Below, piece after piece: positions 18,845 through 57,100 of a stretch of 64,000 bases of DNA. Positions within the stretch are counted from its first letter, which is position 1. Every line of letters begins with the position of its first letter. Below the pieces are notes generated by a model. That model made no database searches and was not told where the DNA came from. It saw only the letters and a list, made by a program, of their open reading frames with translations. Origin of the DNA: Clostridia bacterium. Lineage in GTDB: Bacteria; Bacillota; Clostridia; Christensenellales; UBA1242. The translations under genes were made by a program, and so were the position numbers. The stretch lies in assembly GCA_016283155.1 (NCBI GenBank), contig JAEEMI010000016.1, positions 44,726-108,725 of the forward strand. Direction: 5' to 3'.

Positions 18845-18871
18845 ACGAATTAGAACTTTCGGTTCTTTTTA

Positions 18872-18901
18872 ATTATATCACTTTAAGTGTTAATTTTGCA
18901 A
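18872..18901 (-). promoter_or_regulatory. ssrA promoter
   Basis: Minus-strand TTGCAA-18 nt-TGaTATAAT, about 27 nt upstream of the mature tmRNA 5' end. Confidence 0.6.
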
Positions 18902-18924
18902 CCATACGCCACATAATTATAACA

Positions 18925-28214: not shown

Positions 28215-31200
28215 TTACTGATTATCCTGACGTTTCCAACTATAGGCTTTGGAACTTAAATCCGTACCATCCAATGGCGACTTAGTACCATCATAATTGG
28301 TCCAGAACGTAATACTTTCGTAGGTATGCTCAACTTTTTGAATACCAGTTGCTGTAGCTTCTTTGTAATCATATTCATTAGCACCTTGATAGAATGAAAT
28401 CCAGTTCCAATCACCATTACGTGCCCAGAATTTCATATAATTGTGGTAACCTTTGAATTCCGGATCATCCGAGAACACACGTTTAATACGGGTACAAGCT
28501 TCTTCAAAGGTATCAAACGGGATATATAATTGGGCGTATTTATTTTCAGGAATACATAGTTTATTACCAGCAATTTCTTCGTTTTTAAGCGAAATCTCAT
28601 CTAGACACAACGCCATTTTATCATAATCAACAACGGGTTGATAAACGGGTTTAGCTTTTTCAACATATGTAGATATATTTACAGATTTTGCACCTCCTTG
28701 ATGTGTTATATACGATGATACTTTTCCATACTCTTCTAACCTTTCACCTTCTTTTAATCCCCAATAATCATAACGATTAGGAATCGTAACTAAATCACCT
28801 GTAGATATATAATCACTTGGTCCCATCGTTATTGTTATAGAAACAGATCTATCACGTGTGCATTGATCAAAATCATAGTAACTAAATTCATCGTGTGTTT
28901 TTCTAAAGCGATACAAATCATATCTACTGGTCCAAACATTTAGAATCTCTTTTGCATCTGAATTATTCATAGAAGAATCACCAACTATTATTGCTGCACT
29001 AGTATCAGTTCTAGCTCCATAAAGAGCATACCCTTTGTCATTATAATTGACATAATCATTAATTCTAGAAGTAAGTGTACGTTCTTTATAAAGTTCGTTG
29101 TATTCATAGCGGTCTTGTACCGGACGGATATGTGTATCTTTTACGTTTGGATACAATCTTTTTCCATCATCATCGGTTTGATTCCAACCAATGGCATTTT
29201 TAGCAACTTGTTTATATTCATCAGATAATTTATTTAACGGCAACGCAAATACTGAACTTTGAATCGTTCCAGTTTCTGGATCTGTAACTTGTTCACCACT
29301 GCTGTGAACACGTGGGAATACCGTGGTACTGATTTTACGGTTCAAGATTGGTGTCGTAATTTCATCTTCACTGGCTGCACTACCTTTCTTCGCGTAATAT
29401 TCAATGTTGTTTTCGTATTTTTCCATTCGTTTCCAAACGGCATACGCTTCAATGGTTAACCAACCATCATCGGACTTTTTGGTTTCGGTTTCGCCCTCTT
29501 CGTTGGTTTCTTCGTATTCGCCACGTTGTTGTTTATAATTATCATCGTATTTATAAATGTTAATCCATTCGTAATAATTACGGAATGTCATAAATGGATT
29601 ACCGTCGTTATACCAATCCAAACAATATTCCACCAAGTCCGACGTAATCGCCACTTCGGTGGCACCGTTATATTGAATTTTACGACGATTTTCACGGTTC
29701 AAAACCCAACGGTAATCTTCGCCATTGAATTTATTTACACCATCAATTTTCAATTTATCCGCCAAACCAGCTTTGACATAATAAATGTAATGGTTTAACG
29801 TAAAATATTTTGCATCATTATCACTAAATGTTTGTGCCCAACGGAAATAATCCGCGGTGCGACCGTGTGCACGGAACAATTCCATAAAGGCTTCACGGTC
29901 TGAACCAAAGGTCATTGCCGGTGCTAATTCGGTTTCTGCGGCAACGTTTTTAGTAAATCTAGTCAATGCAGCCTGTTGTGCTGCAGCATCTCCATCAAAT
30001 GGATTTTTAAAAGTTGTCGCATCAGGAATATAACTAACAATACCCGTAATATTGTCCGCTGGAACATCGTATAATTCAACATTACCGCCGTTAAACAACG
30101 CTTTGAACAACAAATAATCGCCGTAATTACTATACCACGTATCAACACCAGATTCATTCGGAACAAATTCTGCGCCTAAAACAATTTCGGTATATTCCGC
30201 CGTCGTAAATGTTTGATTTGGATCGGTACTATCATTTTTAAAGCCCGACAAACCTTTTTCAGTTACCGAATTCCAGTCATCAACTAAAGCATTTGAACCA
30301 GGAGTACGTGTAACTGTAAACTCACCATTAGCATTAACTTCAGAAACCATCGCATAATCACCTTTCGGATCATCATTCCATTTTTCACCACGAATAGCGT
30401 GCGCTTTGATTTTGTCAAATTCTTCCGCTGTAAAGCCTTCTTGACGCCACCACAACGCTTCTTCTAAATAATCTGAAAAATTATTTGTATGTTCAGTGCT
30501 ATATTCTACATTACCACTTTCATCTTTTACATGGTTACTAATCATCCACAAAAAATCGTTGATAACTTGACGGGCAATCTTATAGTAACGTGTTTTAATT
30601 ACATTATTATCTTTATCTTTTTCTTCAACAAAGAAATCTGGATAATTACGCGACGTTGCATCATTTAATTCTGGTTCTGTCAATTCATAAATCAATAAAA
30701 TATCTTTACCCGCTTTATTTGATTCAGATGAACCGCTGGAACCGCTAGTATTAACCGTAATTTCACCAAACATTTTATTGTTATCGGTATCGATATATAA
30801 TGCAGCACCAATAAGATTATTGACATCAGCCATTAAATTGATTGCAGTGTTATTATACAGTTGATATTGTTTGCCATCACCATTAGTAAACGTTTCCGCA
30901 CCTGGCAAACTCCAAACGCCTGATGGTTCATCTGTATCAAACACGTGGTCAGCATCGATATCAGAATACCAACGCGAGTTATTATTGTTGTCATCTTGAC
31001 TCATAACTTGGATCTTATCATCGACATAAACGGCACGATAATTATTGTTATCACTCTTAATGCAACTTAAAACATTACCATAAGTCGTTGCCGATAATGC
31101 ATATTTCAGATTTTCACCTTGAATTTCATACGCATCATTAGCATTTTTCGTGGCGTAATATTTTTTAATAAATTCAATTTGTTCTTCAGTCCAACCATAT

Positions 31201-34200
31201 TGTTTACACTTCAAAGCAAAGATATAGTTATCCGTGGCAGCATCAGAAACTTCTAAAGTATCATTAGTTGTATTTCTATCGATTAGATCATACAAAGTTC
31301 CACCTAGCCCAACCATTTCTTGATACTTAGTAATCATTAATCCTAAATTTTCTTTAGCCGTTAAATAACTACTTAGTGCTTCCCATTCGTGTTTATTGCC
31401 ATTTGTATCAATATAGGAAATAACGCCCGCTTCCGATTTAACTTTTGTTGCATCTAAGTCGGTCAAACTGGCAACCCAATTTAACTCAACCGCACCAATT
31501 GAACTAATACGGGCATCGCCATTACCTTTATGACCGGTTTTAATCCATTTAGTTTCATTAGTAGTTACAATAGCTGTTTCGTGCTTCATTAAGTAAATAA
31601 ATTCAGGGATAGTTAAAGCATTGGATGATTCTTTCAAAATATCATTAGTATAAAGATAGAGAACGTAATCGGCGGTATCTCCTACGTTAGTTACCGCAAA
31701 ATCATTCGGAACATTATAAGTTTCAATAACAACATTCTTATCGTCTTTATATTCAAGCGATTTACCATAGAGATTCCTCATATAGTAATAATATTGAGTT
31801 AACGACAAACTCCAACCATTACCACCCATATTAAATGGACTATTTTCCTTGACTGAATTAACCGCATAATTAATATAGACTTGTAATGGGTCAACATTGC
31901 TAAATTTTGTAGCATCGGTAATTGGTGTCGCTAATAACGCTTTCAAATCACTATTGACAGCAACCTTTGATGCATTAGTTACTGTGGTTTTTCCATCTTC
32001 ACTAACAGTTTTAACGTATTGAACAATTTCGTCGTCACCTGTTTCAGTGTATATCTCGCGTTTCAACGCTAAATAATTTTCATAATTATTCCAATTAAAA
32101 TCAGCATTTTGTGCACCAGAAATTCCCTTCGAGATTTCATATTTATAGGTAAAGAATTCAATTGCTTTCTGTTGACGCTTCGTACGATACGTATCCAAAT
32201 TGCCAGTGAAATCTTTCTCACTCTCACCCGTAATGTCAACATCTACGGTACTAACTGCACTGTACGCTAAGTAACTTTTGTAATCGTCAATAACTTTGTT
32301 TGAGGTTTTATTTTTACCGTCAACAATAGTCGTTGTGGTCAACGCATTATTATGGGCAGTATCATTCCAGCGGTTGAAAATATTATTTTTATCTAACCAA
32401 TCAGTTAATTCTTTCAAAGCCGCAATGTCATATTTTTCAACAAACCTATTCGCGCCATCCACATAAACGATATCGATTTTAGTTGGTAAACTGCGGACCC
32501 ACGGTTCCAACATTTCAATACGCGTTACCAAATCTTTATTGCTAATGGTGTTCGACAAATATGTCAAATATTCATCGTAAACCATTGTTTGAATCTTACG
32601 TGTACTATTTTCCACAACACCAAACTGATTAAATGGCACTGCTACGTCATTATTAAATGTATATAATCCCGGAGTTGCAAAATCAGTTGCCGAAACGTAA
32701 CCCATATTAGCTGGGAATTCAATTTGTAATGATCTAGTATATTTGATACCGTCATTATTACTATACAATTCAACAGTTTCACTGCGACCAACAATTCGAC
32801 CAAAATAGAAACCAACATTTTGCGCTTGATACGATGTAACTTGAACTGTACTATTATTAATATTTGTATGCGTGTTAATTGATTCAGTAACTAAACCATT
32901 TTTACCGTTGGTTCCAACGACACCACCAATAACATATTGATATTTGCTATTTGTTGGTGCCAAAACGTTAGCGCTAATGTTGATATTTTCAACAACACCA
33001 CTATGACCGTCTCCGAAACCGCCGTTATAACCAACCGCACCACCGACAGTCATACCCCAATAACGTTGTTGTTCACTCTCACCACCTTCAGCAGGATCTT
33101 TACGGAACACAAATGAATTTTCCCCAGCCGAACTGGCAACAGTCCAATTATTTAAGGCCATTGCATTATAAGTTTTACCACTGGTAATGTTGCCATCCGC
33201 ATCTCTCTCAATTTCACCACCGGTAATTTTACCTAAATTGATACCGACCAAACCACCTAAATAATATTTACCAGTCAAACTTGCCAAACTTTCAACAACG
33301 GGTTTTTGCAACTCAATTGTTTCATCCATAATACCAATTAATCCACCAGCAACGTTACCTGCCACATTCTTAATCGCACCAGATACATTACGAATTACAA
33401 CTGTTTCATAGAAATACTCACCTGAGCCGCTATCGACTAACTCATTCAATGGCTGACCATTTATATCTTTTAAGAACCACTTTGATTCTGAGTTATAACT
33501 ACCACAATTTGCACTGGCAATGGGTTTACCGGACGCATCTTTTTGTTCAATAGTCTTATTGAAAAAGCGGGAACATATTTCGGTTTGGCCAAACGAATTA
33601 ATATAGCGATAGTTATTGGGATTAGAAGTAACAAAACCAAAAACGCCACCGGCAGCTCCGTAACCTTGTTCATAAGAAATATTTAGTGCTTCTACCTTTG
33701 CATATAATGTTTGTCGACAATATTCTTCACCCGAACTAAATGAATTAGCACCAACATCGGATATTTTATTTTGGAAATTAGCCGTAACCGATACAGAACT
33801 ATATAGATTATAGTTTTCAACAACTATTTCATTATTATAGTCACAAACCACATTCAAGCCAACGAAACCACCAACAATGTTGGCACCTTTAATTGTACCG
33901 GTACACTTTACACTAACATCGACGAAACTGGTGTTAATTGCAATACCTGCAATACCACCAACATAACGTGCGGTTGAATTAATTGTATCAATTTCAAAAT
34001 TAACGTTACGGAAGGTTGCATATTCAGTCTTACCGAATAACCCCATTGTTGCCAAATCATTGGTAACAGTACTTAAATTAATACCGCTGAATGTTAAGCC
34101 ATTACCTTCAAAAGTACCACGATAAATAATCTTATATGTATTTCTAATACCACTGATACTGATATTATCAATTAAACGAATATGATTATTTTGATAATTA

Positions 34201-37200
34201 TTTTCAATATCGGTTAAGGCTTTTGTTGTATTTTTATCTGATTCGGTCGCTTGTCCAACCGAATGATATAAATTATTTTCAAATTCATATTTATTCCAAA
34301 TCAAATATGGATTTTTTTCAGAACCAAGTTCATAAAGGTATTTAGCTGCAACTTGATCGTTACGACAACTAATCACAATATCATTAGCAGCACGCAACAT
34401 CGGGCCTTCGGTAGTCATCATCCAAATTGTATTTTTTGCTGAAATTCCCCAATCAGAGTTATTGTTTGTACCAATGGAGTAACCTTCGTAATTTTTAATC
34501 TCGTCATATTTGTCAGAATTATTTTTACCACTTAACAATCCCTTCAAGACACCGTTCCATTCATCACTAATACTAAGACCAACTGCATTACCCGCATAAA
34601 TCAAATTAGATAAATTAGCCGTATTAACAGTATCTTCAAGTTCATCACCATTACCATTGATACATACGAACGGACGATAGAAGTCTAAGGTATTACCACT
34701 TTGCGTAATAATGTTATTATTTTCAATACAATTTTTAATCACACCTTGAGCCGTGTTTTTATAGACGAAACCACCAGCTGCACCTTCGGTACCTGTTTTC
34801 ACAATTACCATATTAACCAAGCAATCAGTAATCGTTCCACTGTTAAGATGTACAAAACCACCTAAAGAGTTACGAATTGTACGGACAGCCCCTGCTTCGG
34901 ATATATGGTTCAATAATGCACGACCTACCGAACGTCCCATTGCATAAGATTGTTGAATAATACCTGTATTTTGTCCGACGAAGCCGCCCAACAAACTGCT
35001 ATAACCTTCTCGCACTTTAGCATTAGCATTGTTAACTACATTACCATCACGGAAGAACGTACTAGTGATAGTACCACTATTCGAACCAACAACACCACCA
35101 ACAATTGAAGATAGAACGTTAACCTGATCAACGTTACCTGTTCCCGTATTTTGTCCTGGACCATATAATTCAATATCAATCAAAACACGACTATTGGTAA
35201 TCATATGTGAGTTAGAACCAACCAAACCGCCCAAGACCACACTAACATTTTCGTTGTTAACCTTAACAAACAACTTAGCCGGTGACACACTCTCAAGTTC
35301 CTGGTTATCATAATATATCATTGGACTATAGTCATCATATTGTGCAATTTCGTGGGTATCACCATCAATTGCATATTTATTACCGGCATCATCTAATTCA
35401 ACAACCCATACGCCGTCTTCATCCTTTTTTAAGCGATAAGCATCTGGCTGTCCATCATTATCATAAAAACGATAGACATTCTTAACTACTTTTTTATTAG
35501 TTTCACTATCAATACCAAGTTCATAGAAATAATAATCTTTTTCTACTCCTTCAACTTTCTCAAATAAATAACCATCTTTATTGAACGGTAAAGCCGACGT
35601 AAATGTTTTACCTGTAATTGGATTAATAATCTGATTAAGGTCACGCATATTAAATTGCCATTGTGACAAGACCGCACAGTTTGTAATTACACCATTGTTG
35701 ACACCAGCTAACAATCCAACATTAACTGAGGTTGTATAATTGGCTAAATTAACTTCCAAGGTTGTTACAGGTGCTTCATCGCTGCCACGTTCAATCACAA
35801 TTTGTAAATTCATAATTACCGAATCAGCAGGAATTGAAGTAAACATACCAATGTTAGCCGGCGAATTAGTTAAATCAAATCCAGCACTATTAAAGATAAT
35901 TTTATAATTGTTTCCATCTAATACAGTATTTGATGGGAAATCTACAGGTTGCCAACGTCCGTTACGTAAACCAGGAATATTGTACATCACAATATCTTCC
36001 ATCAAAACGTACCTTACGCCAGATTGCAATGACATTAAAACGTTAGCGTTATTCTGTTTGATGAATGCCGTGAAAACACCACCATTACCGTTACCGTTTC
36101 CTCCGTTATTATCATCATCGTCATCATCGTCGTCATCATCACTAGAGTCAATGTATTTATTCCAATCATTAATATAATCAATATAACCTTCGGCTCCAAT
36201 CCTAGAATCATAAATAATGTAAATTGGATTACCGCCAGTGGTTCCATCATCTGATGTATCATTCTCTTTACTGAAATCAGGATCATATTCATCGCTAGTC
36301 GGGTCTAATCTTGGATCATAACGTGGATCAGTTTTATCAGTTGGATCAAAAATTGTGCCACTGCTATTACCCGTAGGATCTGTGCCATTACCGCCAAATC
36401 CACCTTGACCAGTTGATCCGCCACCTTGTCCATTTGAACCACCGCCTTGTTGTTGGCTTCCACTTGGATTGTTTGGATCATATTCGCCGCCACTGGAATT
36501 CGGATTATTTGGATCCGTTGGGTTTGTACCTGTGCTGCCTTGTCCACTTGAACCCGATGGATTGTTTGGATTATTTGGATCCGTCGAAGTACTCGTTCCA
36601 TCCGATGATCCAGAATTATTGTTTCCATTACCATCAGTACCAGTGCTTCCGCCATTCGAACCATTACCACTTGGGTTTGCAAAAGTTTTATCTGTAGTAT
36701 GAATCAAGATTGAACTGGTAATTACTTGAGCTTCATTAGCATTATTTGAATATGATGTTACAATTTGTGAAGAATCAACAAAATTTTGATTTACGTTACC
36801 AACATCATAACTTACATAGCCTGAAACCGTTAATACTGTTGTTGATGCATCAAGAATTCTACGAGTTAAATATGAACGATAATTATAACGTTCAATCACA
36901 TAGTTAACTTGGTGTCCTTCTTGTGGGGTATTTTTCAATGTCAAATACGGATAATGAGCATCATCACTCGACTTTGAATCAAAAGTATTAATTCTTGTTT
37001 CAATACTTTTTACGGTACGTTCAATATATGCTAATTCATCTTCAGCATAATAAGCACTATTCAAGGTGGAACCAGTTTTAATTTCAGGAGTGAAACATAA
37101 GACTACTGCATTTTCATTCAAAGTAACTGAATCAAATTTATCATTACCAATTTTTAATTTCCAGCCAACAACTTCAAACAATACTGGTTTAATTTGTAAT

Positions 37201-40200
37201 GAGTAATATGCCCAAACAAATTCCCCATTAACAAGTATGGTAAACGGAATTCGTACATCAATAAAGTCATTCAAATTCTTTGCGGAAGCTGTGAAAGTAA
37301 TACCAACAATTAAATCGTTAGCACCGTTATTAACGATATTGATATCAAAACATTCATACTTACCAACACCACTTTCCAAACCACCATTAAATACTTTAAT
37401 ATAATCATAAGCAAAAGATATATTACGGTTATCAACGTGCAATGGATAATTACAAGATGTACCAATGGCCTGCATATAGCGTGCACCAATTAACAACGTG
37501 TTATCCTCATTACCATCAGTACTGTAGCCAGGTTCAAGACCTTCATAACCTGGGAAATCAATGGTTTCAATTTTTTCAGTCGTAATTTGAATTTGTAAAT
37601 TAACATCAGTATCAATTAATGGATTTACACTACCTACTCTAGGTGCACCCGTCGCATAACCAACTTTAACAGTACCTAAAATACTATTCACAGCCGATGC
37701 ATTTTCGGACTTATGAATCATAATTCGGTTGCCAACATTCTTCAATTCGACATTAATACTACCAACATTATTTTTAACCGCAAAATACAAAGTTTCATTA
37801 TCTATCACATTATCAACAGGAGTTTCATTACGTATCGCATTATTTAATGAATTTTCAAAGTTTTGAATCAATAAATTTGCTACATTGCGAATATTTACAT
37901 TATCTGAATAAGATGCCTGAACACGCAAATCCAATGTAATATCGCTATTTAATTCTACATTATTATCTTCTACTCCTGCCAAATAGAAACCTTCCACAAT
38001 GAATACAGTTGGTGTAATATAGTACTTATAAACATAATTTGGTTCAATCGCATTTACATCATCAGAATACGGGATTTGAATTTCAATCATATAATTACGT
38101 AAAGCAACAACCGGAGCCAATGAAACATTGAAGTTAACAACATTATTATTGGATTTTTCAACTTCAACAGTAATCAAATTTTCACGTTCACCTTCGATGT
38201 TAATTGAATGGTCGGTTCCTTGCTCGACTACTTTAATATCATTATGGAAAATACGTGCTGCACTAGCAATCTCAACAGAATAATCTGTCGCTGTACCTAA
38301 GGCTTGAACTGCGTAACTAACATTTGCAGCCAAAAGTTCTTTACCAACTTTGTTATTTTCCCAATCGGCTTGACTATAACCAGTTGAAATTAAAATTTGG
38401 TTAGATACTAAAGTATTACTATTTTCAACCAATCTTGGAAGACCATTTTCATAAACAACATAAGTTGAAAGTCCAATTGCAGTATTACTCTCCGTGGTTG
38501 CCGAACAATTTCGTTTCAAATACAATCCATCAATACCGATGAAAATATGCGGATTATATACAATCATATAATTCACTGCTTCATTTTCAAGATTGCTTTT
38601 TGCATTGTTGATTGAATTTTGTAAAACCAAATCATTAGTTTCACAGGTTTCAATATGAGCAACATAACTAATTAAAGTATTAGGTTCACTATCAGTTGTT
38701 AACAATAAATAATCATCGTGCGTTTGATCACTAATTAAAGTATTGTTATTGCCAGCAGCCTTAATTGTCCAACCCTTTAATTCAAACAATAAGGGCGTTA
38801 TTTCAATACAATAACTATACCAAACATCCTTACCGTTAACAGTGGTTAAATAAGGGATATAAACACGAACTGGATTTGATAACAAAGTCGAATTGGTCGA
38901 TAATTGAATTTGCAAAGTATTCTTAGCAGTATCAACTAAAATGGTTAGTTTTTCATAGGTCTCCATTGTCCCATTAGTTGAATTATCAAACGAATTTAAC
39001 AAATTACCAGCATTCTCAGCCCATAAATATTGATAGAAAATTTGTCCTTTAATGTTTTTTAAGGTATAAAGTTTGGTTTTACCAATAATCTGGTTAGCTT
39101 GCACTTTACCCATAACCGCTGGATGCTCTGGATTTGGTTTTTTATTTGCCGACCAAACACGATAGTCAATGACACTTTCAACAACATTACGTTTATCTTT
39201 AGTAATTGTTGTGAATTCAGGGTATCCATTATTATAATTAACAGCTGCACCAAAGATAATATATTGGTTATCTTCAAAAGTAATTGACTTAGGTGCTACC
39301 CCATTGTTTAAACTTTCGTTAATACTATTAATGTGATTTTGAACGTCGCTTAACACTGCACTGGGAACTTTTGTTAAATCCGAGGTAATCACACGGTATT
39401 GCAAGTCATTAGTCGAATATGGTTCCACGACCCAAACTGAACGTTCTGGATGTTCAACTGGTTCAAAACCTAAAATCTCATAATAAACAGGATTAATCTG
39501 TAAAGTATATTTACTACTAATCTCAACATTAACCGGTGAACCAATTAATGCATCATCTAACAATAAAACATTAATATAATTCGGGTTATCTTTTGACCAA
39601 GTTGCGTCATAATAAAGACTATTAATTGTAACATCTGAACCGTTGCGTACTACCAATGAACCATTTGTCTGGAACATATCATCCAAATTACTTTCTAAGG
39701 CAGCATCATTAATGTAATATGTTTTGATTGTACCAACAGCTTGATATTCACTGTGCGTACTAGCATTGACCGTGTTAGCCTCTACTACTTTAAATGATTG
39801 CCAAACACGATGGACCGGATCATTGGTCAAATAAGGCGTACCTTGATAAGCATTGTAAGCTACCGAAGTCATAACTTGAAAATAATAGACACCAGTACTT
39901 TCTCCACGCGTACGCGTTTTAGCAGCATATTTTGATGTTAAGAATGTGTTGGTAAAATCATCTAAGATTGTTTGCAAAGTAATATGATTAGTAGTATCAA
40001 TTTCTTCATTTAATAAACTATCAGCATATTCATAAACTGGAACAAATGTGTTTCCACCAATACTAGCAATATCGTTAGTAAATTGATTAATATCGTCTAC
40101 ATAAATTGTATCATCATTATAACCAGGAAGAGCAAAACCGGTCACTTTAAATAACACCGGACGAACAACTAAAATAAATGCAACATTATCCGCATCAGAA

Positions 40201-43200
40201 CTATTAGGAGTATTATTCACGTGTGCTCGGTCATAATAGATAAAGATTTTGAATTCACTGTGAACCAATTCAGCATCCGCTTTTAGAGCAACTTGTAAAT
40301 GATTTCCATTTGTTACTTGTACCGTAATATCATCACCAGTATAACGTTGTAATTTACTGTCATCATCAGCATATTTGATATCACTATTTTCATACACAGC
40401 AATCATTTCATCAGTGAATCCGGTCAAATCAGGAACATCAATTGTATATGCCACATTGGTTCCAACTGTAATTTCTGTCATACGATTACGTGGTACATTA
40501 GGATAAACGATACCATTACCCTTGATTTGATCAGCATAGTATGCATACTCAAAAACATCACGCACAACCGCAGTTGGTTCTGCACTGTTAATTGATACAA
40601 TATTAGCTACACCGTGTGCGTCATAATTAATTGCTGCACTGACAATTAAATATTGCTTACCCATTAAAGTGGTAACTAAATAATCATCCCAATCTTTCGC
40701 CACCCACTCGTTGTTTTCATATTTTGCTAGATGAAGATTAAATGCATTAATTTGATTTTGAATTTCATCAAACAAAGTGCTGTCTGTAGAATAATGAGCA
40801 CGCACACAGAATAATAAGTCACCAACTTTCTCACCTGTTCCATTAGAATTAATCAACCACATATGACGTTCTGGATGATTAACTACCTCAAAGCCCTCAA
40901 CCAAGAACCAAACAGGTTGGATTGTCATCGTAAAAGTTGTTCCATTATTAATGGTTATTGTTACTTGTTTTTCTACTAAAGTTTGGTTTGGTTTCAAAAC
41001 AACCTTTAAAGCATAAGTATTGTTACCGCCATAGTTAACTATTTCTGCTGTGATGTAATTTTCAACTTCACTATTATTAACATTTGTTATTGCTTGGTTA
41101 ATCGTTGCACCAGCGAAACCTGCACCCAAATAATAGTATTCAGTCGTACCAACAGCTTGATAATGCAAAGCAACATTACTCTGTGCGGTTCGAGAATATT
41201 TAACGTAACTTTCAATCACATTCAATGGGTTATTAACAGTATTTAACAATTTAGGTGCTTGACGATAATTAGAACCAGCTGCACCATAATCGATTGCGAT
41301 ATCAAGTTTCAAATATTCACCATCATCTTCAATGTTAAACAAGCCACCTTTAACCGCGTTTAATTGCGTATTAAATGTTTTAATGTATTCAACAATATCC
41401 TTACCATTATACGAGATTTGATCGTTATATTTAACTTTGGCACGATAAGAAATTTCAGTAATTTCTAAATCATCCAAATAAATTGGTTGTTCAGGGAAGT
41501 CAGTATCCACTCCAATTACCTCAAATAGTACCGGTTGGATGGTTAATACGAATACCAAATTAGAACCTGAATAAAAATTAAACACAATATCCTCGTTAAG
41601 CAAATTATCAATTGCATTTTCCCAAGTACTCGTTGGTAATTCACTCGGCAATAAATTTAAGGTTAATACATTATCCACAAATGAAGCTTTCCAACCACGT
41701 TGCGCTAAGATACTTTCGTTGTAGGATAACATTTCCATATCAGCACTCAGTGTTTGACTCAAATCAATTGTATAACTAACCGTTGTACCAATTGCTTGTA
41801 CTTCAGTACGAGTGCGTGGTCCTACTGGTAACGGTAAATATTCAGCATTAGCATTGCTGTTACCACGACCAAATATTGCGTACCAGAAATCAACATCAAG
41901 ACGTACAACGAAATCACCGTTTACTTCTGGTCGTTCAATGATTGTTGGGATACCTGTCGTATAATCCAAATAAAGTGTAATATGCAAATCACCCGACATT
42001 AAACTACGATCATAATAGCGACCAATTAAATTAGCTTTTGTATTTTGTAATTCACCAATAAAGTCCGCTTTCTTTTGTGGAATTTCAAAACTTGAATTTA
42101 GTGAATGTTCACCAAAAATAGCATCAAACTTAACACCTAAAGGAGAATCCGGATCTTCGCCATAATACAAAAAGATATTACGATCTTCACTATTCTGTCC
42201 TGCCACAGTCAAATCTTCAACAACAAAATAAGCAGGAATTACATTCAAAACATACGATGGTTCTTCATCGTTATCGTTAACAAAAACACCGATACGGATA
42301 CGATTACCCAACAAAGCAGTTGTTTGCGCTAAAATAACTTTAATTTTGTTTTGGCCATCTCGTTCAATTGCCCAATCTGAACTCATTGATTGGTCGTAAG
42401 TATTCCAAACTTCGTTACCATTAACATTTGTACCGATTTTAATACTTTCAAAAACACGGTTAACATTATATATAACAGTTTGACCAATCGCTTGAGCTTT
42501 GGTATTTTCGGGAGTGCCATCAACTAATTCATAGCGATAAACATTTTGCACTGTCGTAAGACCATTCACGACATTAACCAAAGTTGGAATACCATCTTCA
42601 TAGTCTACCCCAGCAATCAAAGTAATGTAACCAGCATCATCAATACGTGATACTAGACCAGAAATGTTTAATGATTGTTTAAAGGCAGCAATTTGTGTAT
42701 CAAAATTATAACTATGGCTGTAATTTCTAACAAAATCCAAATCCAAATCTTGTAACCAACCAGTTTCATTTTTAATCAAAACCGGATTTTCATCGACGTG
42801 TTTTGACAAAAATAATTGTTCAACAGTGAAATAAGCAGGAACGATGTTCAAAACGTACATCAAATCCCCTGCTTGATTATAAGCCATAACACTTAAAACT
42901 TTATTAAATAAACTGGTATCTTCATTTAAAGTTACCAAAACTGTATTTTCTTTTACATTACAAACAGCATTCCAAGCAAAACTATTTTCCCAAACAACAT
43001 TACCATCAGCACGAATTTCGTATTTATCTAATGCCGAATCGTAAACGACACCCGGCAAAGCAATATTATAACGGACCTTAGTGCCAATTGCTTGAGCAAT
43101 CGTACGTACACGTCCATTTGGTGCCGGATCGAGCACTGGCGTAACGCTATTATTTCCTTCATTGGCGGCACCAAAGGTATTAACTGGAATATAAGTTGAG

Positions 43201-46200
43201 ATTTGTTGTCCATTACTATTTAATGTTGGAATACCGTTAACATAAGTAATGCCTGCTGTAATCAACAAATAACTAGTAGCTGTAATCGGATTAGCACTGT
43301 CAGCACGAGTTAAAGCACGTGTTGCATTATCGAAGTTAAAATTTAAAATACCATCGTCATTCGGAATACGATTAAATGACAATCTTGTATCGGTTGATAA
43401 ATTATTTTGTGCATTTAGAAGCGCTGTATTAAACGTATTAATGGCGTTATTGACGGCCGTATCATTAACAGCACTGATATTTCCCGCCTCAACTGTTATC
43501 GTACTCGGGGTAGTTAACGCCACCAATGGATACGCGGGATTATTTTGTAATTTAAATTCATCAAAGGTAAAATATACCGGAATAATGGTCAATTCTAATT
43601 GAGGAGTTACTTGGTCAGCAGTTGAATAAACGTAAACAACAATTCTACCTGCATTAATTAATGCACTATATGCAGTACTATCACTAACAGTACTACTACG
43701 ATTTTCTAAACTAACCGTCAATAAAACTGTGGTTCGATCTTGAGACTTAATATCACGATACCAATAATCACTAATTCCTGTTGTGTTATTATTTGAGTCT
43801 TGTAAGTATAACCTTGATGCGTGTATTGGATCCCAGTTATAGAATGTATATGTTTCAGCAGTGCCCACAGCTAAATATTCTGTGCGTTTGATTGTCGCAA
43901 TAGGCGTTGCAATATCATAATAGAAGGTGTGCGCATAACGGAACTCACCATTTTTGGTTAATACCGGAACACCATTAACATAAGTATACGGAATTTGTAT
44001 ATCAATTTGACCAGGAGTTTCATAGTTACGCGAAATTAAACTTGAAGTTAATAAACTTTCATTAAACGTTCTCATTTTTTCAGTCAAAGCACTACTGGAC
44101 ATACTGGTGTTGTAATTAAATAAAGCACGATATTTTAATTGCGCTAAAGCATTTTTGGATGCCAATTGTAAACGTGTCTCATAATGATCAATTACCTCTA
44201 CACTATCAAATTCAAAATAAACCGGTACAATGACAATGCTAAAATATGGATTAACATAATCGCCAGGACGACGATATGGAATACGAATTTCAATTGATTG
44301 TCCTATTGCTTTATTATCAGCTTTTATATAAACAGATAAAGTTTGATCAACAGAGTTAATTGTTACATCCGCATAGGTTGAATGAATCGTCGTATTTGAA
44401 GAACCAGTTCCGTTCAAAGTAAATTTTGCATAATTTGGCACACAATCAATTGGCAATGCAACGTCATAAACAGCCGTTGTACCAACTGCTTGATAACGCG
44501 TTTGAGCCATAGTTCGCACTGCATAATCTTCTGTATTGCTATCTGGAGTAATTACAAAACTATCGCGATATCTAGCATCCAAAGTCATAGTTTCCGTAAT
44601 TGCTTTTGCCGTTCTTTCACCTTGAATCGAAATTTGAATTTTGAAACGCGTACCATCTGGTAATCGATATGAAACCTGCGCATCCGAAACAATATAAGTT
44701 CGGAAATAATATTTACCGGTCCATTTATATCCCTCTGCAGCTGACCAAGATGAAACCATTTTAGGTGTGCCAGTTCCGCTTAAATATGGTTGATAGTACT
44801 TTTCAGTTTCATTATAAATCATTTGAGTAAAACCAACCGTATACGTCACTTTATCGTAAATTGGTTTACCTGTTAAATCCGTACCGATCTCAACGTTCTC
44901 TATATGAGCACCATTACTTGCCATTGATAATGAAATGTTGGAAACGTTAATATAATATGGCGTCGGATAAATTACCAACAGTCCACCTGCCGATTCGTTA
45001 TCCAAATAAATTACACCGGAATCAGTTTGTCCAGTTGCTAATGTCAGTAAACTTCGATTACCTTCAACGACATTAGTATTGGCAAAATGCGCCATTGTCA
45101 CATTATTAATTCCATCTTTCATTAAACTTAATGTCGCTGAATCTTTAGCTGGAGTTTTTACCTTACTTAGCGGTGATCCAACTAAATTTTCACGTATAAT
45201 TAATTCAGCACTCGGAATATTATAGAAAGGATCAACATCAGGAACAATAATTACAACGGCTACTTCAATACGTAAGTAATAAGTATAATAACCATTAACT
45301 GGAATTGTATTGGCATTCAAACAGGTCAACTTAAATTCTAATTTGGACTTACCACCTTCCAAATTAATATAGGATACATCTGTATCATCGGCGAACAAAT
45401 CATAATACACACCGTCGTATGAGAAATTATACGTTAACAAACTTGGTTTCCAGTTTTCCTGATCAATACGCATTGTTACATCATAAGTCGCTGTTGTAAC
45501 ACCGTCTAATGATACAGAATTTTGCACGATGTTCAAATAGTTAATACCACCCTTAACATCAACTTTTACGTTAGCTGTTAACGCATCTAACTCAAATGTG
45601 AATTGTTCCGTTAATCTTGTAAACTGAATATATGGGAAGAAGGAATATGTACCACCATCATAAGTAACATATGAAGTACGTCCCTCTTCTTCTGTAGTAA
45701 AATTAGTTTTGTTTAATTGCCAACCAGCACTTTGGTTTAAATTTGAATTAAAATTAAAGCCGGTACCACGTTGAACCGTAATTGTATCAATTTTGTGATT
45801 ATTTTCATCTTCTGGAGAAAGCGTTCTACGAGCTGCTAAACCAATACGATTGTTTCTAACATCAAAATTATCGATTCCTTCGACTACATAGAAAATCGAC
45901 ATCTGGGCGTTAACACTGAATTGATAATAAACTTGTACGTCGCCGTGACTATACATTTCTTCGTCATTACTGGTTCCGTGTTTATGGTTTAAATCAATTT
46001 TTAATCCTTCTCTTCCTTCATCAGGATTCAAACGAACTCCAACCGCACCAACTTTTTCTGCAGCATTATTACCAACTTTAACATACTTTTCTAATGTAAT
46101 TGTTTCAGTTAAACCTTTTAATGTCCCCCAACCAAGCACACTATACAAATCATCAAAGTAATAAACATTTGCATCAATTTGTGAACCATAAGGGTTCCTT

Positions 46201-49200
46201 GGTGTAGTATAGAATAACACGGCAACACGTTGGTTAGTTGAATTCTCTTTTGCAGGAATAATCCAATTGTAACCACCCAGATTATTACGTTTACCGCTGT
46301 TAGCATCGTGAATATGGTTGCTGGTCAACTCAGCAATATTAGATGTTACTTCTTCGGCACTACCAACAAAAATACGCACAATTTTATAATATTTAGGTAA
46401 TACCAAATCAACGTTATTATTGGTATCAACGTAATACAAACTGTCACGCGTATAAATTACCAACGCATAGGATCCCATATCCGTTACATTTTGCAATGGA
46501 TCAATCGTAACCATATCGGAATTAACACAAGCCGTAGCCACATTACCAATTTGTAGATTAGAACCATTCACAACAGGTGCGAAAGGTGATAATTCATATT
46601 TGCCATTTTTCCATTCTGCATATGCAATGCCAATATTTTTATTCGATGCGTCATCAGCCGATTTAACATTAATTTCTGCTCCACTCATTGAACCAACTGT
46701 CGAAATTAATTCAACATAATTTCCCAAATTAGTACTAAAATCATTGCCTGATATAGTTATTGTGTTAGGCTTAGTTTCTGAAATACTAACCGATACAGAT
46801 ACTAAAGCTCCAGCCATATAATTAAATTCAAACGGAAGTTCGTTATTAATTACACCATCACCATCCAAATCAAATTCGGTGAAAATATAATTTTTATAAA
46901 CTTTAAAACCAATATCAAAAACGCCATCAGTTAAATATTTGGCCGTAATCCTAAACTTATTAATTGCCCCTTGTGATTCAATTAACACATTTTCATTTTT
47001 CTGTGCAATGTCAATATGTAAATAGGTATAATCAGTAATCGACACGCCCTCGTACGAGTACATTTTTAATTCGACTTCACGGCTACAGCCAATACCATCC
47101 AAATTAAGGATGGCAGGTTGGGTCACAACGTTAATTACAGGATCAACAACAATCATATAAACCGTAATTGTACGTTGGTGTTCGTGATAAACTTCTTCAC
47201 TATAGGCGTGCAAACTAACCGTACAAGTATAAATTCCTTCAGATAAATCAATCGCATTAAAACTACGTGTATTAGTTGCGATTACTTGATTGCCAACTTT
47301 AATTTCATCAAAAATTGCATATGCACCTACACTTACACTTGGCGTATCAATCGCAAATTGATAATCATATCCCTTACGTACATAGACTGTACGCACATAA
47401 TCATATGTCGAATTATAACTATTAGAAATAGTTTGGTAAACTTTTCCCTGACTATTACTTACAACAGACATTGACAATGCTTCAACTGTTGGGAAAACCC
47501 GAACATTAAACGTATAAGATTTACCATTGGTATAACGAATCGTCATTGGATAATCTTTATAATATTGAATTGGTGCAATATCACTTGCTGTAAAGGTATA
47601 GGTTAGATGGTAATATCCCGCCACACCATCAACGCTAAAGGGTACTGAACGATCACAAGTAATTTCAAATGGTAAATTCTCACTATTATCCGAAACTTTA
47701 GTTGTATTCCAAAATTCACTATAGGTATCAATGTTATCACGAGTTACCATTCCATAAACGTCAACAGATGCCGTGCTAAATGTTTTGTATTTAGTATTAT
47801 ACACTAAAGCAACACCAGAAGTTCCATCGTCAAATTTAGTTAAGTTTTCAACTTTAAATTTGTCAATAGCACTAGTAACATCTAAATTAATATCACAAGT
47901 TGCGTTGCCCCCAATTGATAATTGCTCAATACTTTTTGCGCGTAAAACCATTGAAGTAATATGATTACCAATAAAGTTTGATGCGTTACCTTTATCAGTT
48001 AATGCTACTCCGAAAGTATTCAAGTAATTAACCGAATAGTTACTTTGCGAAAGCATTACCCATTTATTAGTTTGTTTTGACCAATAACCAATGTTTAAAA
48101 TACTATATAAATCGAAGTCTTCATCAACCAATTTTAATTGACCATTTTCTTCAATCCACTTACCCTCACGGTCATAAATTCCAGTATAATTACCATTACT
48201 ATCTTCAACGACCAATTCAAATTGGATATCAGAATCCATATTAATGGTTTTTCCATTGCCGGTATCTAGAGTAAATGTATCATAATATTTGTTAATATTA
48301 TTTTCGTTTTTACCTTCATAAAAAAATGCATCAACTGTTTTTTTACTGGGTGCTAAATTATATGATTTATCGCCGTGAATTCTTACATCACTATCGCCAT
48401 AAAATTCATAACGTACACGTAAATAAATTGTATCAACAATTTGAACATCAACATCAGACTCATCAGCAAAACTGATTTCCGTATTGTTCGTTAAATCTTT
48501 AATAATTGGATATGCCGTAATTCGCACCGCCACTTCTCCAAGGTTTTGTACTGTTGATAACGAACGTTCATACGGCGAAAGATAATCAACACGTACCATT
48601 TTAGTATCTGCACTTTCTACTTTAAAACCATAATCAGAAGCTGCAGTTTTAACTTGGTCTAAAGCAAATGTAAAAGTTGCCCCAGATTGTTCTTCACGGT
48701 TAGCAATTAAATCCCAAACATTTTCATACATTGAAGTAGTTGGTGCCTTGTATGCATCGGTTGTTGTAATTACTTTTGTTGCCTTAGGGAAAACATAAAA
48801 AGGAACATCCAGCCAGTCATCCATAGCGGGCAATTTAACTTGTAAATCAATATATTGATCAACACAAGTTGCCTGATCTGTAACAGTCAAAAAGTCATTA
48901 TCCAAAATGACACCTGAATAATCACGTTTTAAACGATATTCTACTGGAAATTTATTTGGCGTATATATGTGTTCATTATCATCAGGATGAGCATAAAAAT
49001 CATATTTACTTAATATTGCATCTGATTTTAAATTTACCCCTACCCCACCTTGACGAATTCCAAAGTGAGCATTAGTGCCAATCTTCATATCTTTAGCAAT
49101 CATACTAACGGTAACTTTAACCGAAACCGTTTTTGCACCAGATGCACTAGTGAAGACAATGTTAACCGGGGCCCCACCATTTTGTCCGGTAACTTTAAAA

Positions 49201-49662: not shown

Positions 49663-51288
49663 TTAGGACAAATAAACTTTATTTTGAGAATAAATTTTCA
49701 ACGATCCAACATCACTACCCTTAACCGTAATTCGATTTTTAGCACTAGCCGAATCGTTTTCATCACGACTAATTTTCATATTATTCGTTGCATATGCAAA
49801 GCGTGAACTACTGTTTGCCGAACGCGCAAAATAGACATACATATCTAAATCATTACAATTTTCACTTAAAGTGACATTAACATTACCCCAATCATCGTGT
49901 CCGCTTATATACCCACCAGAACGAATTTCCGCAGTACCAACATTTTTGAATTGTGTATTAATATTTGCCGCTCCTGCTCGCTCTCTTTCACCAAGTATTG
50001 TGATATTTACATCGCCGCCATTAATTCCACGTACATTAATCTCACCATCATAACCAAGGATGTTCACGTTTTGATTAATTGAAATCAAATCGACATCAAT
50101 TTTACCGCCGCCAACTTGATAACTATTAATTGTTACATCATCTGTCACATCACTCAATGAAATACTACCAATACCATAGTTATAAACAGTAGCCGCGCCA
50201 AGTAATTTTTTAACATTAACCGATGCAGTTGCATTTGGTTCACTCGGTGTTCCAGCCGTAAAATTTAGATTTCCATGAATGGCATCTATTTCCAAATTTC
50301 CATTAATGGTATCAAAAACAACATTACCTTTAACAAGTTTATCAACCTGTAATTTACCAGATTGAGTTTTCATAGTAACATTACCCAGTACACCTTCAGT
50401 GACATTAATTGGTGCATTAACCGTTTCAACATCTAACGATTTTTCAATAGTATACACTTTTAGCAATCCACTATCTTGCTTAAAACTCACATTACCTGAT
50501 ACTAAAGTTCCACGGAATTGATTGTTATTACCTTGAATGGTAATATTACCACCTACAGCAAGGACTTCATTACTATAACCAAAATCCAAAACATTATTTG
50601 AACCAGTCACTAATACATCATTTTCAACTTTTGCCTTACAAGTGACCTTAGTTTTATTACCTTTAATTTTGACATTCTTAACTGAACTTTTTTCATTATA
50701 TGCAACATTCACATTACCTGCACTTTCAACAACCAAATCATTAATTAACAATGCATCCGTAGCGTTTTCCATATCGACGAAAGAAAAATCAACAGAGCTA
50801 TATTGATTTTGTAAAACAAAATCATAACGAAATCCATCATTACGGTATGGTAAATTAATATATACAGTAGTTGGTTTTTGTGTGAACACCATTCCTGATG
50901 GTTCTAAGATTTTAATGCGGTAATAAAGCTGATTATTATAAGATGTCTGTGTCCATTCAATTAAAGTACGATTGATATTATTAAATGCAATACCAGTCGC
51001 CGATTCATTAACTACAATTGTATTTTGACCATCATACCCATTATTCGACATCTTAACTTCAACTTTTGTACTATTACTTTCTAAAATGAATCTACCGTTA
51101 GCAAATGCATCAACCAAATCATCATCACAATAAATTACTTGCGTATCACGTTCGTTAACCGACCTGGCCCCAAAGAAAGATGCCTTTGGAAAAATAAATA
51201 AAATTCCTGTAATCAAACCCAATATCACTGCTGCGCCCAATAATACAAACCCAAGCGTTGCGACTATACCAATTGCTTCACGTTTCAC
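49663..51288 (-). CDS. N-terminally anchored beta-helical protein (DUF4097/putative-adhesin-like repeats)
   Basis: 541-aa ORF with GTG start 9 nt after tadA. One N-terminal TM helix, then repeated short beta-strand units (GNVTMKTQSGKLQVDKLVKGNVVFDTINGNLEIDAIHGNLNF; GGDVNITILG...). Confidence 0.55.
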   Translation of the reverse strand: MKREAIGIVATLGFVLLGAAVILGLITGILFIFPKASFFGARSVNERDTQVIYCDDDLVDAFANGRFILESNSTKVEVKMSNNGYDGQNTIVVNESATGIAFNNINRTLIEWTQTSYNNQLYYRIKILEPSGMVFTQKPTTVYINLPYRNDGFRYDFVLQNQYSSVDFSFVDMENATDALLINDLVVESAGNVNVAYNEKSSVKNVKIKGNKTKVTCKAKVENDVLVTGSNNVLDFGYSNEVLAVGGNITIQGNNNQFRGTLVSGNVSFKQDSGLLKVYTIEKSLDVETVNAPINVTEGVLGNVTMKTQSGKLQVDKLVKGNVVFDTINGNLEIDAIHGNLNFTAGTPSEPNATASVNVKKLLGAATVYNYGIGSISLSDVTDDVTINSYQVGGGKIDVDLISINQNVNILGYDGEINVRGINGGDVNITILGERERAGAANINTQFKNVGTAEIRSGGYISGHDDWGNVNVTLSENCNDLDMYVYFARSANSSSRFAYATNNMKISRDENDSASAKNRITVKGSDVGSLKIYSQNKVYLS

Positions 51289-54141: not shown

Positions 54142-57100
54142 TTATTTAGTTGTCATCTTATGACGCATACGGATAAAGATTAATGCACCGATTCCAGCAA
54201 TTCCCAGCACAACGGCCAAAATCACATAACCAAAAGTACTTTGTTCTTGTTCAATCGTCCAACTATCACTATACACAATATCACCTTCAGCATCACGCAC
54301 GGCAATACGGTAAATACCTGCACCCGAAGTTGTAAACAATTCTTGAGCTGAATAGCTATCCGCCAATACACTACTATCAACAGTAATTTCTTGTTGAACT
54401 ACATAATCTTTTGTCAAAGTAATTGTCACATCACCTTGCGCCAAATACAACCAATATGGATTGTAATATAATGTTACCGAACCAACTGTTGAAGAACCAC
54501 TAGCACCACTCAAAATAAAATATGTACTTGCACTATTTGTTTTATGTTGTATGTTAAAACTAATTTCATAAAGAATATTAGTTTGTAAAATAGCATTATA
54601 AGCCTGCATTGTAACGACATATTTACCTGGATTATTATTGGCATCAAATGATATATATGTATCATTTGCATCTCGTACAATATAGTTATCAGTATTGTGA
54701 ATGTTATATCCGTCACGCGTAATTGAAATTACCGGAATATTGGGGTAAAGTGACATATTAAACGATTCACTAACTGTCAAGGACGGAATAATTTGGAACG
54801 AATATTCACCCGTTAATAAACTAGAAATTTCACCACCATTATTAGCATTAGGATTATAAATACGGTATTTCAAAATTATGTGATACTTGCCACTTTGATT
54901 CCAATAAAACACATTTTGCGCACCACTTACATCCATTTTTTCTTTGGTCGTACCATTTGAACCTGAATATGTCACTTCAATTTCGGTAACACAGAAATAT
55001 TGTTCAAAGAAATCTTTATTGGTCAAAGTAGTTATACCGCTACTAGCTAATAAATTATAATATTTCTTTAAAAAGCCACTACCATAATCAACCATCTTCA
55101 ATTCAACTTGATCATTATAAATCATACCACCAACTGGTTGATTTCCATTAATTTCAACAACTGGTTTTGTCATTACCGCTAATAAATAACGATCCTGTTG
55201 ATAATTAACATCACTTTCGTCATCGCTACTACCAAAATACAAATAGTTACCAATCAAGTCGTGAACCTTGAATTCATAATAACCAGCATCGCTCTGATTA
55301 ATAGTAAATACATCATTATGTTTTAATGTTTTAACCAAAATACCGTTATAATAACAATCTACCAAAATCAAATTACCAATTTGCGAATAACAGGGAGCCC
55401 CCTTATCATCATAACGAACGGAATCATCGCAATATAACTGAACAGTTAATTTTTCACCACGCGCCTTGGTCATAAAATTATTGTAGACAAAATTATATCC
55501 AGTACTTAACGGAACAAGATATGGATTATTATCAGCTGTGTTGGTTGGATTACCATTTAATTTTAAACGAATCGAATTATCACTAGGTAAACGACCTTTG
55601 TTAACACCTGTTGTGGCAAAATAAATTGGATTAGTATATGTCGGAACACCATTACTATCCTCACTAACTTTTAAAGCTAAACGCCAAATCAAAGTTTCGT
55701 TATATGGGTCATAATCATAATAATCCCAACCGTTTTCGTATCTACCAGCCAAAATACGATTAGTTTGACCCTTGAGAATTTCCAGCCCGTGTTTATCATA
55801 TTGAGTAATCGGATATGGAGCATTTATACTTTCGTCAAACGTTGTGCTGAAAATGTAACGCGTAATCGCAATCTCTTTGCCATTTACCGTATATTTATAA
55901 TCGCTATCGCTAGCTTGAATTTGCTTACCATCATCTTTAACTACTACCAAAGTATCATTAATTTGTACAATTTCAAATTTGAACGTTTGTTTAGCCCAAA
56001 CTGTGTTACGTAAAGTAACCTCGTATTTGCCTTCCTGATAGAAAGTAACTTTATTAGTATCTGGTTTTAAAGTTACCGATTCTACCTGATTATTTAAAGT
56101 ACGCGTATAAGAAATTGTAACAGGAAACATTGTGGTAAGTGTACTTCGACTAATATCAAAAGTAACCGCACTGACGAATGATTGTCCTTCAACTTCAATT
56201 AATTGATCACTCGCATTTTTCCATTCAACGTTTGGTAAACGAGTATCAAAGGCAAAAGTTTTATCAAATAAGATTGCCCCACTGGCACGACCAGTTGCAA
56301 CAATATGATACATCTGCACTGTCGATAAATTACTTTGAGGTTTAAAAGTATAATAAATCATATCATTACTAATAAACGATTGTAAATCATTCAACAATGT
56401 GTCAGTATTAGCATCATAAATTAAAACTGTATAAACAGTACGTAAATAACTAAAACTTACCCCACGTTCATCACCGACATAAATGATTCCATTTCTTGTT
56501 ACAGTGTTACCATACGCTGAGAAGTTAATTGTACTATGTGATTGTTTATGATATTCAGTTGTACTAACACGACCAAATGGATCAGTAACCTTGATAACAA
56601 ATTCGTGCGAAACATCAAGATAGATGGTTGTACCAGACAATGAAAAATGAATATTAGGCACTATTTCAGAAGTTGTTTTATCTTCAACTTCAATTTGGAA
56701 CAACGATGTTAAATTCTTATCCGATAAAATTCGTGGCAGACTGTTAAGATTAGTTACCTCCAAAGTAATCATATTACTGGTAATATTCGGTTGATAACAA
56801 TCCAATTGCATTTGTACAGCATCTTCACGTAAATTATAAAATTCAAATACTTCTACATCACCAATCCGATCGTATAGTTTATACGAACATTTTGTACCTT
56901 TTTCAGTAGCTACATTAATCCAATTATTCAAAGCATTAATCAAATTTTCTTCACTCTTAACTCCATTACCACTATCATTACCAATATGCCAACTCGCTCT
57001 ACTGCCTAAAACAGTATAATACTCATCACCACTCTCAAATTTGAAAGAATTGTTATGCAAGAAAAATTCGTGAACACTGGAAGCTGATGCACTCATTTCA

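Follow-up and report, generated by a model that had tools for sequence, protein, structure and literature searches.

Tandem arrays of beta-sandwich domains serve as stalks in the bacterial surface proteins SasG/Aap, SiiE, LapA and MpIBP. Here we describe an array of eleven two-part modules within a single giant protein of 7,116 amino acids (aa), encoded in a 64,000-nucleotide (nt) window, the whole stretch of DNA that was analysed, of the Clostridia bacterium assembly GCA_016283155.1 (contig JAEEMI010000016.1, positions 44,726-108,725, forward strand). Giant proteins of Clostridia from mammalian guts have generally been interpreted as adhesion proteins (bioRxiv 10.1101/2023.11.21.568195).

The G5-E arrays of SasG/Aap, in which strictly alternating two-part beta modules form an elongated rod that projects a distal domain from a Gram-positive cell, offer one parallel. 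The repeats of SasG, however, are near-identical in DNA and vary in number between strains, whereas the paralogous modules described here are ~20% identical and their number is fixed; the array also lacks a Pfam G5 match and the protein an LPXTG motif, the module measures ~230 aa as against ~128 aa, and each half of the module has the look of a normal globular domain with a core of its own. Ebh/EbhA, the ~1.1-MDa protein of S. aureus, is likewise a giant, membrane-anchored Gram-positive protein with a rod of diverged modules of two sub-domains, but its FIVAR-GA modules are all-alpha three-helix bundles rather than beta-rich, and its anchor is C-terminal where that of the protein described here would be N-terminal. 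SiiE, LapA and MpIBP, with Big_x- or Cadherin-like domains, also use tandem immunoglobulin (Ig)-like extenders in adhesins of several thousand residues, the last strand of one domain leading directly into the next. In contrast to these, the array has no match to a Big_x or Cadherin hidden Markov model (HMM) and no conserved Ca2+-binding acidic motifs, every second domain is predicted to be a helix-carrying one of another fold, and the host is a Gram-positive-type Clostridia in which no type I secretion signal was evident.

Eleven modules of a new sequence family

The array lies within one uninterrupted open reading frame (ORF):

28215..49565, minus strand: giant ORF, 7,116 aa, TTG start; the sole long ORF here, containing the array

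The initial annotation of this DNA, read by eye, had reported at least 11 tandem modules defined by a pair of motifs. We found 11, with first-motif positions within a few bases of those reported. The first motif, Q-A-[IVL]-G-[TQ], occurs in nine copies recognized by regular expression and two degenerate copies recognized by eye (LAVGT and ITVGT), at aa 1692, 1898, 2158, 2358, 2590, 2803, 3032, 3275, 3492, 3754 and 4032 (nt 44492 down to 37472). The second, a strand of the form [IV]xPx[YLWVF][FY], follows 79-102 aa after the first in 11 of 11 modules and occurs once per module in the array; the rest of the 7,116 aa contains only one chance match to it. Two further anchors lie in the second half of the module, an IxxFNxxL motif in its helix and a frequent HPE(R/x)P loop following its first strand. 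Cutting the sequence 12 residues before each first motif gave 11 modules of 200-278 aa that fill aa 1680-4291 (nt 36693-44528):

43911..44528, minus strand: M1, aa 1680-1885; sub-domain 2 at 43911-44219
43131..43910, minus strand: M2, aa 1886-2145; sub-domain 2 at 43131-43574
42531..43130, minus strand: M3, aa 2146-2345; sub-domain 2 at 42531-42833
41835..42530, minus strand: M4, aa 2346-2577; sub-domain 2 at 41835-42230
41196..41834, minus strand: M5, aa 2578-2790; sub-domain 2 at 41196-41528
40509..41195, minus strand: M6, aa 2791-3019; sub-domain 2 at 40509-40910; the module that was modelled
39780..40508, minus strand: M7, aa 3020-3262; sub-domain 2 at 39780-40154; degenerate ITVGT motif
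39129..39779, minus strand: M8, aa 3263-3479; sub-domain 2 at 39129-39485
38343..39128, minus strand: M9, aa 3480-3741; sub-domain 2 at 38343-38789; QIIGK motif
37509..38342, minus strand: M10, aa 3742-4019; sub-domain 2 at 37509-38006
36693..37508, minus strand: M11, aa 4020-4291; sub-domain 2 at 36693-37181

The periodicity is significant, since a leave-one-out profile built from the other ten modules recognized every module with E-values of 5e-21 to 2e-7 (calculated for a database size of 1e6). In the giant protein the significant matches of the full module profile were exactly the 11 modules, and profiles of the two halves alternated strictly, 11 times sub-domain 1 followed by sub-domain 2, with no orphan copies. 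The modules are nonetheless strongly diverged, the protein identity of the paralogues to M6 being 16-30%. The claim of the initial annotation that the array has no nucleotide-level repeats stood as well: the longest direct repeats at the DNA level are 20-60 nt long, 62-85% identical, and fall on the codons of the conserved motifs, and the arrays detected by Tandem Repeats Finder (36111-36141 and 36400-36450) are confined to a linker downstream of the modules.

That annotation had also been unable to assign the modules to a known domain, and searches of Pfam, NCBIfam and PDB sequences, with the region and with 29 individual modules, found no match. Over the whole 7,116 aa Pfam returned nothing at E<0.01, its best matches being an EF-hand (0.05) and DUF3858 (0.44), both noise, and NCBIfam had no match to the giant protein. 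The 29 individual modules matched 21 unrelated families in Pfam at E<=5, each only once and by chance, and a profile search of PDB sequences with the modules reached a best E of 0.28. Families with a comparable architecture fared no better: the Big_1, Big_2, Big_3, Big_9, Cadherin and Cadherin_5 HMMs had no match in the whole region at E<=1 or in the 29 modules at E<=5; the G5 domain of SasG/Aap had no Pfam match in the array; FIVAR, GA and Rib likewise had no Pfam match, and the model of M6 is beta-rich with a single helix; for the isopeptide-forming CnaA/CnaB and SdrD B domains there was no Pfam match and no conserved Lys, Asn or Glu column in the modules; and no acidic column that could represent the cadherin Ca2+ motifs (DxD, DRE, DxNDN) is conserved across modules. 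Comparison of sub-domain 1 with sub-domain 2 by hhalign detected no similarity either, so that the module has no detectable internal duplication. The module is thus a new sequence family, whose first half is predicted to have a common, Ig-like fold and whose second half has no known match.

Age, distribution and selection

When the module profile was run exhaustively with HMMER against 1.84 billion cluster representatives, only 19 proteins were found. Among them are four full-length orthologues (6,535-6,970 aa) and a 3,801-aa fragment, all five with 11 modules, and eleven shorter fragments; the remainder are two distant relatives, P0032 (6,053 aa) and P0033 (3,063 aa), and one artefact, P0029. 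The distant relatives share homologous N-terminal and GLUG-like regions with the protein in the window and carry only 2-3 modules, between which, in P0032, other sequence is inserted; given these low numbers, the array appears to have been expanded to 11 in the lineage of the window. P0029 had seemed to connect the modules to Big_9/Cadherin_5 (E 2.6e-53), but that score sums 28 near-identical repeats of a few bits each, and we rejected it as homology; when sub-domain 1 was compared with the Big_9-type repeat of P0029 by hhalign, 12 columns aligned, with a probability of 0.8%.

A scan of one genome per GTDB species, for which the query was an alignment of M1 orthologues, located the giant gene in 16 species-level metagenome-assembled genomes (MAGs). 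All represent uncultured Clostridia/Eubacteriales, and they come from roe deer, water deer, a mouse gut catalogue and the rumen and cecum of water buffalo. Two of the contigs are titled "Prevotella sp." (L003, JAMPCO010000002.1, and L004, CAZXAV010000001.1); since both have the full Clostridia-type synteny (MBL, CAAX, CAAX, deaminase, 541-aa ORF; see below), they are probably mis-binned. A scan of Joint Genome Institute (JGI) metagenomes added just one 3.6-kb fragment. A word-indexed protein search returned nothing with the module alignment and, with M5-M8, the fragment P0025 and one weak match; this search misses the giant orthologues found by HMMER, and its negatives for very long Asn-rich proteins do not equate to absence.

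The initial annotation had proposed an old and stably maintained array, and the age and stability are borne out by positional orthology, module number and selection. Exactly 11 modules are present in 12 of 12 orthologous loci with enough sequence, as in the window itself. In BLAST comparisons module i of an orthologue matched module i of the window best, at 24-74% identity and with a bit score 3-9 times that of the next-best module, while paralogous modules were 20-30% identical; this positional orthology across loci indicates that all of the duplications predate the common ancestor of these lineages. The array is nevertheless not frozen. In two loci, L008 and L012 (= P0023), M7-M8 has been replaced by a second M9-M10 pair, the only rearrangement among 12 complete arrays, and the total is still 11. 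Mean orthologue identity declines along the array, from 59% for M1 (the highest) to 40% for M10 (the lowest), and sub-domains 1 and 2 are about equally conserved across orthologues.

The ratio of nonsynonymous to synonymous substitution (dN/dS), determined by the Nei-Gojobori method over ~5,200 codons, was 0.14 for the least saturated pair of loci (L006/L007, dS 0.75) and 0.10-0.12 for other pairs. Given the low GC content (~35%), the Asn-rich protein and the lack of any database annotation, it was reasonable to consider that the ORF might be non-functional, an assembly artefact or decaying pseudogene whose periodicity reflects compositional bias. That explanation is effectively refuted, and we give it practically no weight: the 21-kb ORF is uninterrupted, open frames of more than 4,000-5,300 aa occur in 12 independent MAGs, and the dN/dS values of 0.10-0.14, the significance of the leave-one-out profiles and the confident structural model described below all contradict it. 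The array is real, ancient and under purifying selection.

Predicted fold and proposed role

We modelled M6 with AlphaFold2 from a 29-sequence alignment of paralogues and orthologues, obtaining a mean predicted local distance difference test (pLDDT) of 90.6 and a predicted template-modelling score (pTM) of 0.85. In the model sub-domain 1 (residues 8-95, pLDDT >90) comprises seven strands (8-14, 18-25, 31-36, 48-54, 60-67, 78-83 and 87-95) and two short helices. The QAxGT motif forms the tight turn of the A-B hairpin, and the last strand, which runs into the next domain, ends in IxPVxF; strand 98-104, two residues past sub-domain 1, opens sub-domain 2 (residues 98-221, ~125 aa), which consists of nine strands and an 18-residue helix (139-156), with YxxGxP as the turn following strand 182-191. 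The initial annotation had divided the module into two parts, the first of them beta-sandwich-like, and the model agrees on both points. A pTM of 0.85 for a two-domain model indicates a defined geometry between the domains; sub-domain 2 modelled alone gave a pLDDT of 89.5 and a pTM of 0.78.

A Foldseek search of the PDB with the whole module returned mostly tandem Ig and cadherin ectodomains (protocadherin-19, LAR, titin, NCAM, FLT3) at E 1.5e-5 to 1e-3 and probabilities of 0.97-0.99, with template-modelling (TM) scores of only 0.2-0.3 and root-mean-square deviations >10 Å, values that indicate similarity of generic beta-sandwich architecture. Given the seven-strand sandwich and these matches, sub-domain 1 is, as modelled, Ig-like at the fold level. 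Sub-domain 2 had no significant match in the PDB (best E 0.38, TM-score <=0.33) or in BFVD (best E 0.2).

The top match of the whole module was to protocadherin-19 EC1-4 (E 1.5e-5). In one rival reading the modules, like cadherins or S-layer proteins, would associate with one another laterally or in trans to build a cell-envelope lattice or a cell-cell junction. Homophilic Ig-superfamily ectodomains are among the best structural matches, position-specific conservation is what would be expected if defined modules pair with defined partners, and a 2,630-aa surface protein and a 541-aa membrane protein are conserved neighbours of the giant gene. We nevertheless consider such self-association improbable. 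The TM-scores to cadherins and protocadherins were 0.24-0.29 at ~10% identity, within the 0.2-0.3 of generic beta-sandwich similarity; sub-domain 2 alone matched E-cadherin and protocadherin-15 at E 0.4-0.5, which is not significant; the modules, in contrast to cadherins, have no Ca2+-binding motifs and no acidic linker motifs of that kind conserved across them; and the Pfam scan detected no SLH or other S-layer domain.

The positions common to all modules are G16, Y21, P94, F97, Y191 and a shared G-x-P, all of them turn and core residues, and no Asp, Glu, His, Cys, Ser or Lys is invariant across modules. The lack of a conserved catalytic-type or metal-binding side chain favours scaffolding over catalysis. 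On the other hand, individual modules have invariant loops of their own, IRIPYxRPGDYxNPY in M1 and an HPER loop in M6 and M8, and it was not unreasonable to consider that the modules might be binding units, forming a multivalent adhesin or lectin-like array with a separate ligand for each position (for instance plant-wall or mucin glycans, or partner proteins) and with sub-domain 2 as the recognition domain on an Ig-like pedestal. The charged and aromatic residues of these loops (HPER in M6/M8, RPGDYxNPY in M1) would suit such a role, each position keeps its identity across species that are only 30-40% identical, and sub-domain 2, which is conserved as much as sub-domain 1 and has no detected counterpart in fold, could be specialized for it. 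Yet no binding- or catalytic-type residue is common to the modules, they have no similarity to carbohydrate-binding module (CBM), lectin or adhesin domains in Pfam or the PDB, and G, P, Y, F, W and L make up most of their within-module invariants, the pattern to be expected of folding cores. We therefore regard binding units as possible, though rather unlikely.

We favour, with moderate confidence, a reading in which the 11 modules build up an extracellular stalk and the giant protein sits on the cell surface, probably through an anchor at its N-terminal end. This reading draws on the parts of the protein outside the array:

49485..49553, minus strand: N-terminal hydrophobic segment, aa 5-27, preceded by a KKR motif; signal peptide or signal-anchor
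44529..49484, minus strand: N-terminal region, aa 28-1679, no recognised domains
36075..36692, minus strand: low-complexity linker, aa 4292-4497 (206 aa), Gly/Asp/Asn/Ser/Pro-rich, including a run of ten Asp
32706..36074, minus strand: GLUG-like Gly-rich repeat region, aa 4498-5620, with at least 12 GG[LFV][VI]GxNxGxI motifs
28218..32705, minus strand: C-terminal region, aa 5621-7116 (~1,500 aa)

The segment at aa 5-27, with its 21-residue hydrophobic stretch, is the only clearly transmembrane-like one in the giant protein (Kyte-Doolittle peak 3.06) and is kept in the orthologues P0020, P0021 and P0027; three further segments, among them the IxPVxF strands of M5 and M7, barely exceed the cut-off of 1.6. 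The N-terminal region is homologous to the N-terminal parts of P0032 and P0033. Beyond the array, the linker (G 20%, D 16%, N 14%, S 13%) is missing at the equivalent position in P0020 and is thus a lineage-specific insertion. The GLUG-like region aligns with P0033 (E 5e-65), in which the motif aligned to window aa ~4860 scores 29.4 bits against GLUG (PF07581; cut-off 20.5), while the window sequence itself has no GLUG match at E<=1. The C-terminal region contains no LPXTG or other wall-anchor motif, transmembrane segment or hydrophobic tail, and the word-indexed homology search found no relatives of it outside the family. None of the three non-array regions searched, the N-terminal and C-terminal ones among them, had a PDB relative.

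Given a probable N-terminal anchor, the array and a large distal region, together with the joining of strand to strand and conserved residues of the core type, a rigid stalk that resembles the extenders of other giant adhesins is the most economical reading. Each module would be a rigid pair of domains, in which the last strand (IxPVxF) of the Ig-like domain continues into the first strand of the second. The second domain, predicted to be beta-rich with one long amphipathic helix (the IxxFNxxL motif), would close with the YxxGxP turn and a long final strand leading into the QAxGT hairpin of the next module. Judging from typical Ig-domain dimensions, 22 such domains placed head to tail would make a rod of ~80-100 nm, which would keep the GLUG-like region and the ~1,500-aa C-terminal region at a distance from membrane and wall; there these distal parts would presumably attach to a substrate or to another cell. 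From this architecture we infer the extracellular location, the rod geometry, the role as spacer or "ruler" and the adhesive function of the distal parts.

Several points weigh against a stalk of this kind. The giant protein has no recognised wall-anchoring or wall-binding domain (LPXTG, SLH, LysM, CWB), and its N-terminal segment could be a signal peptide whose cleavage would release the protein. Nor would one expect a pure spacer to conserve its modules individually, and the module-specific loops point to position-specific interactions. Finally, the argument for a fixed length draws on one rearrangement, common to two related loci.

Conservation of each position, and a count that stayed at 11 after the replacement of a module pair, suggest position-specific contacts, a constraint on length, or both. 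They also leave some probability to the two rival readings, binding units and ordered self-association. The Ig/Fn3 array of titin is similar in two respects, in that each position is closer to its counterpart in orthologues than to its neighbours and that the units are fixed in number, as would suit a ruler role; titin differs in being eukaryotic and intracellular and has no sequence relationship to the array, for which a ruler function is an interpretation only. A stronger proposal is that sub-domain 2 is a genuinely new fold and that the array is a "molecular ruler" of 11 non-interchangeable modules whose number is under selection. Its length would set the working distance of the distal GLUG and C-terminal head, in analogy to the super-repeats of titin, and the lineage that lacks M7-M8 regained the count through duplication of M9-M10, which fits the idea. 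Taken as a whole we consider this proposal unlikely.

The locus and what the array means

The giant gene lies among ordinary Gram-positive-type chromosomal genes. Its neighbours in the window include GlmS, amidases with PG_binding_1, NusA, transfer-messenger RNA (tmRNA), tRNAs and PheS, as well as RecD2, a tadA-like deaminase, two CAAX proteases and a metallo-beta-lactamase (MBL) hydrolase; the GC content of the surrounding genome is ~35%, the GC skew is negative throughout, and the members of the 90%-identity cluster of PheS are named as Clostridia or Eubacteriales MAGs. Further genes on the same strand as the giant gene include:

49663..51288, minus strand: 541-aa ORF, with an N-terminal transmembrane segment and a repetitive Gly/Asn/Val-rich body
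54142-62034, minus strand: 2,630-aa ORF, with an N-terminal signal-like segment and a C-terminal transmembrane anchor (…FGYVILAVVLGIAGIGALIFIRMRHK)
62106-63956, minus strand: VirD4/TraG-type type IV coupling protein (PF02534, E 7e-48), with the 2,630-aa ORF directly downstream

In every locus that reaches far enough the gene order is identical (2,630-aa ORF, MBL, CAAX, CAAX, deaminase, 541-aa ORF, giant gene), which indicates vertical inheritance. The 541-aa ORF, 98 nt upstream of the giant gene, is directly upstream of it in 13 of 13 loci extending that far, at 38-55% identity, and may encode a functional partner of the giant protein; the Pfam scan gave no match for it. The C-terminus of the 2,630-aa ORF is syntenic in 10 related loci, and this ORF has no match in Pfam or NCBIfam. 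Neither of these two neighbours has sequence or modules in common with the giant protein.

The VirD4-like gene, 12 kb upstream of the giant gene, led us to consider an adhesin of a mobile element or conjugation system. The housekeeping neighbours (tadA-like deaminase, RecD2, PheS) and the synteny across species disfavour this, and the position of the giant gene among housekeeping genes in conserved order fits vertical chromosomal inheritance better than a mobile element.

Two other observations were made in the window. The minus-strand ORF at 13601-15025 encodes another probable surface protein, with BspA-type leucine-rich repeats (LRR_5) and Listeria-Bacteroides repeats (Flg_new). The tmRNA gene (18478-18844, minus strand; 145.7 bits) extends over the first 61 nt of the listed ORF 18784-20421 (plus strand), whose Pfam matches to Peptidase_M19 and M14 start only at residue 116; given this late start and the overlap, the true start of that ORF is probably further downstream.

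Tandem beta-sandwich stalks in giant adhesins are already familiar, and nothing in these data overturns what is known of them. What they add is a repeat-domain family new to Pfam, NCBIfam and the PDB, one half of which is confidently predicted with no detectable structural relative. The giant protein is without annotation along its whole length, and a definition of the domain would improve the annotation of the genomes of this uncultured Clostridia lineage, mostly MAGs from the ruminant gut. The array is also an unusually clean case among bacterial surface proteins, in that both the number of units and their individual identity have been kept across many species; the well-studied Gram-positive adhesins, with their recombining repeats of variable number, show the opposite behaviour. 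Should the fixed count stem from a constraint on length, the array would offer a handle on how distance from the cell surface is tuned.

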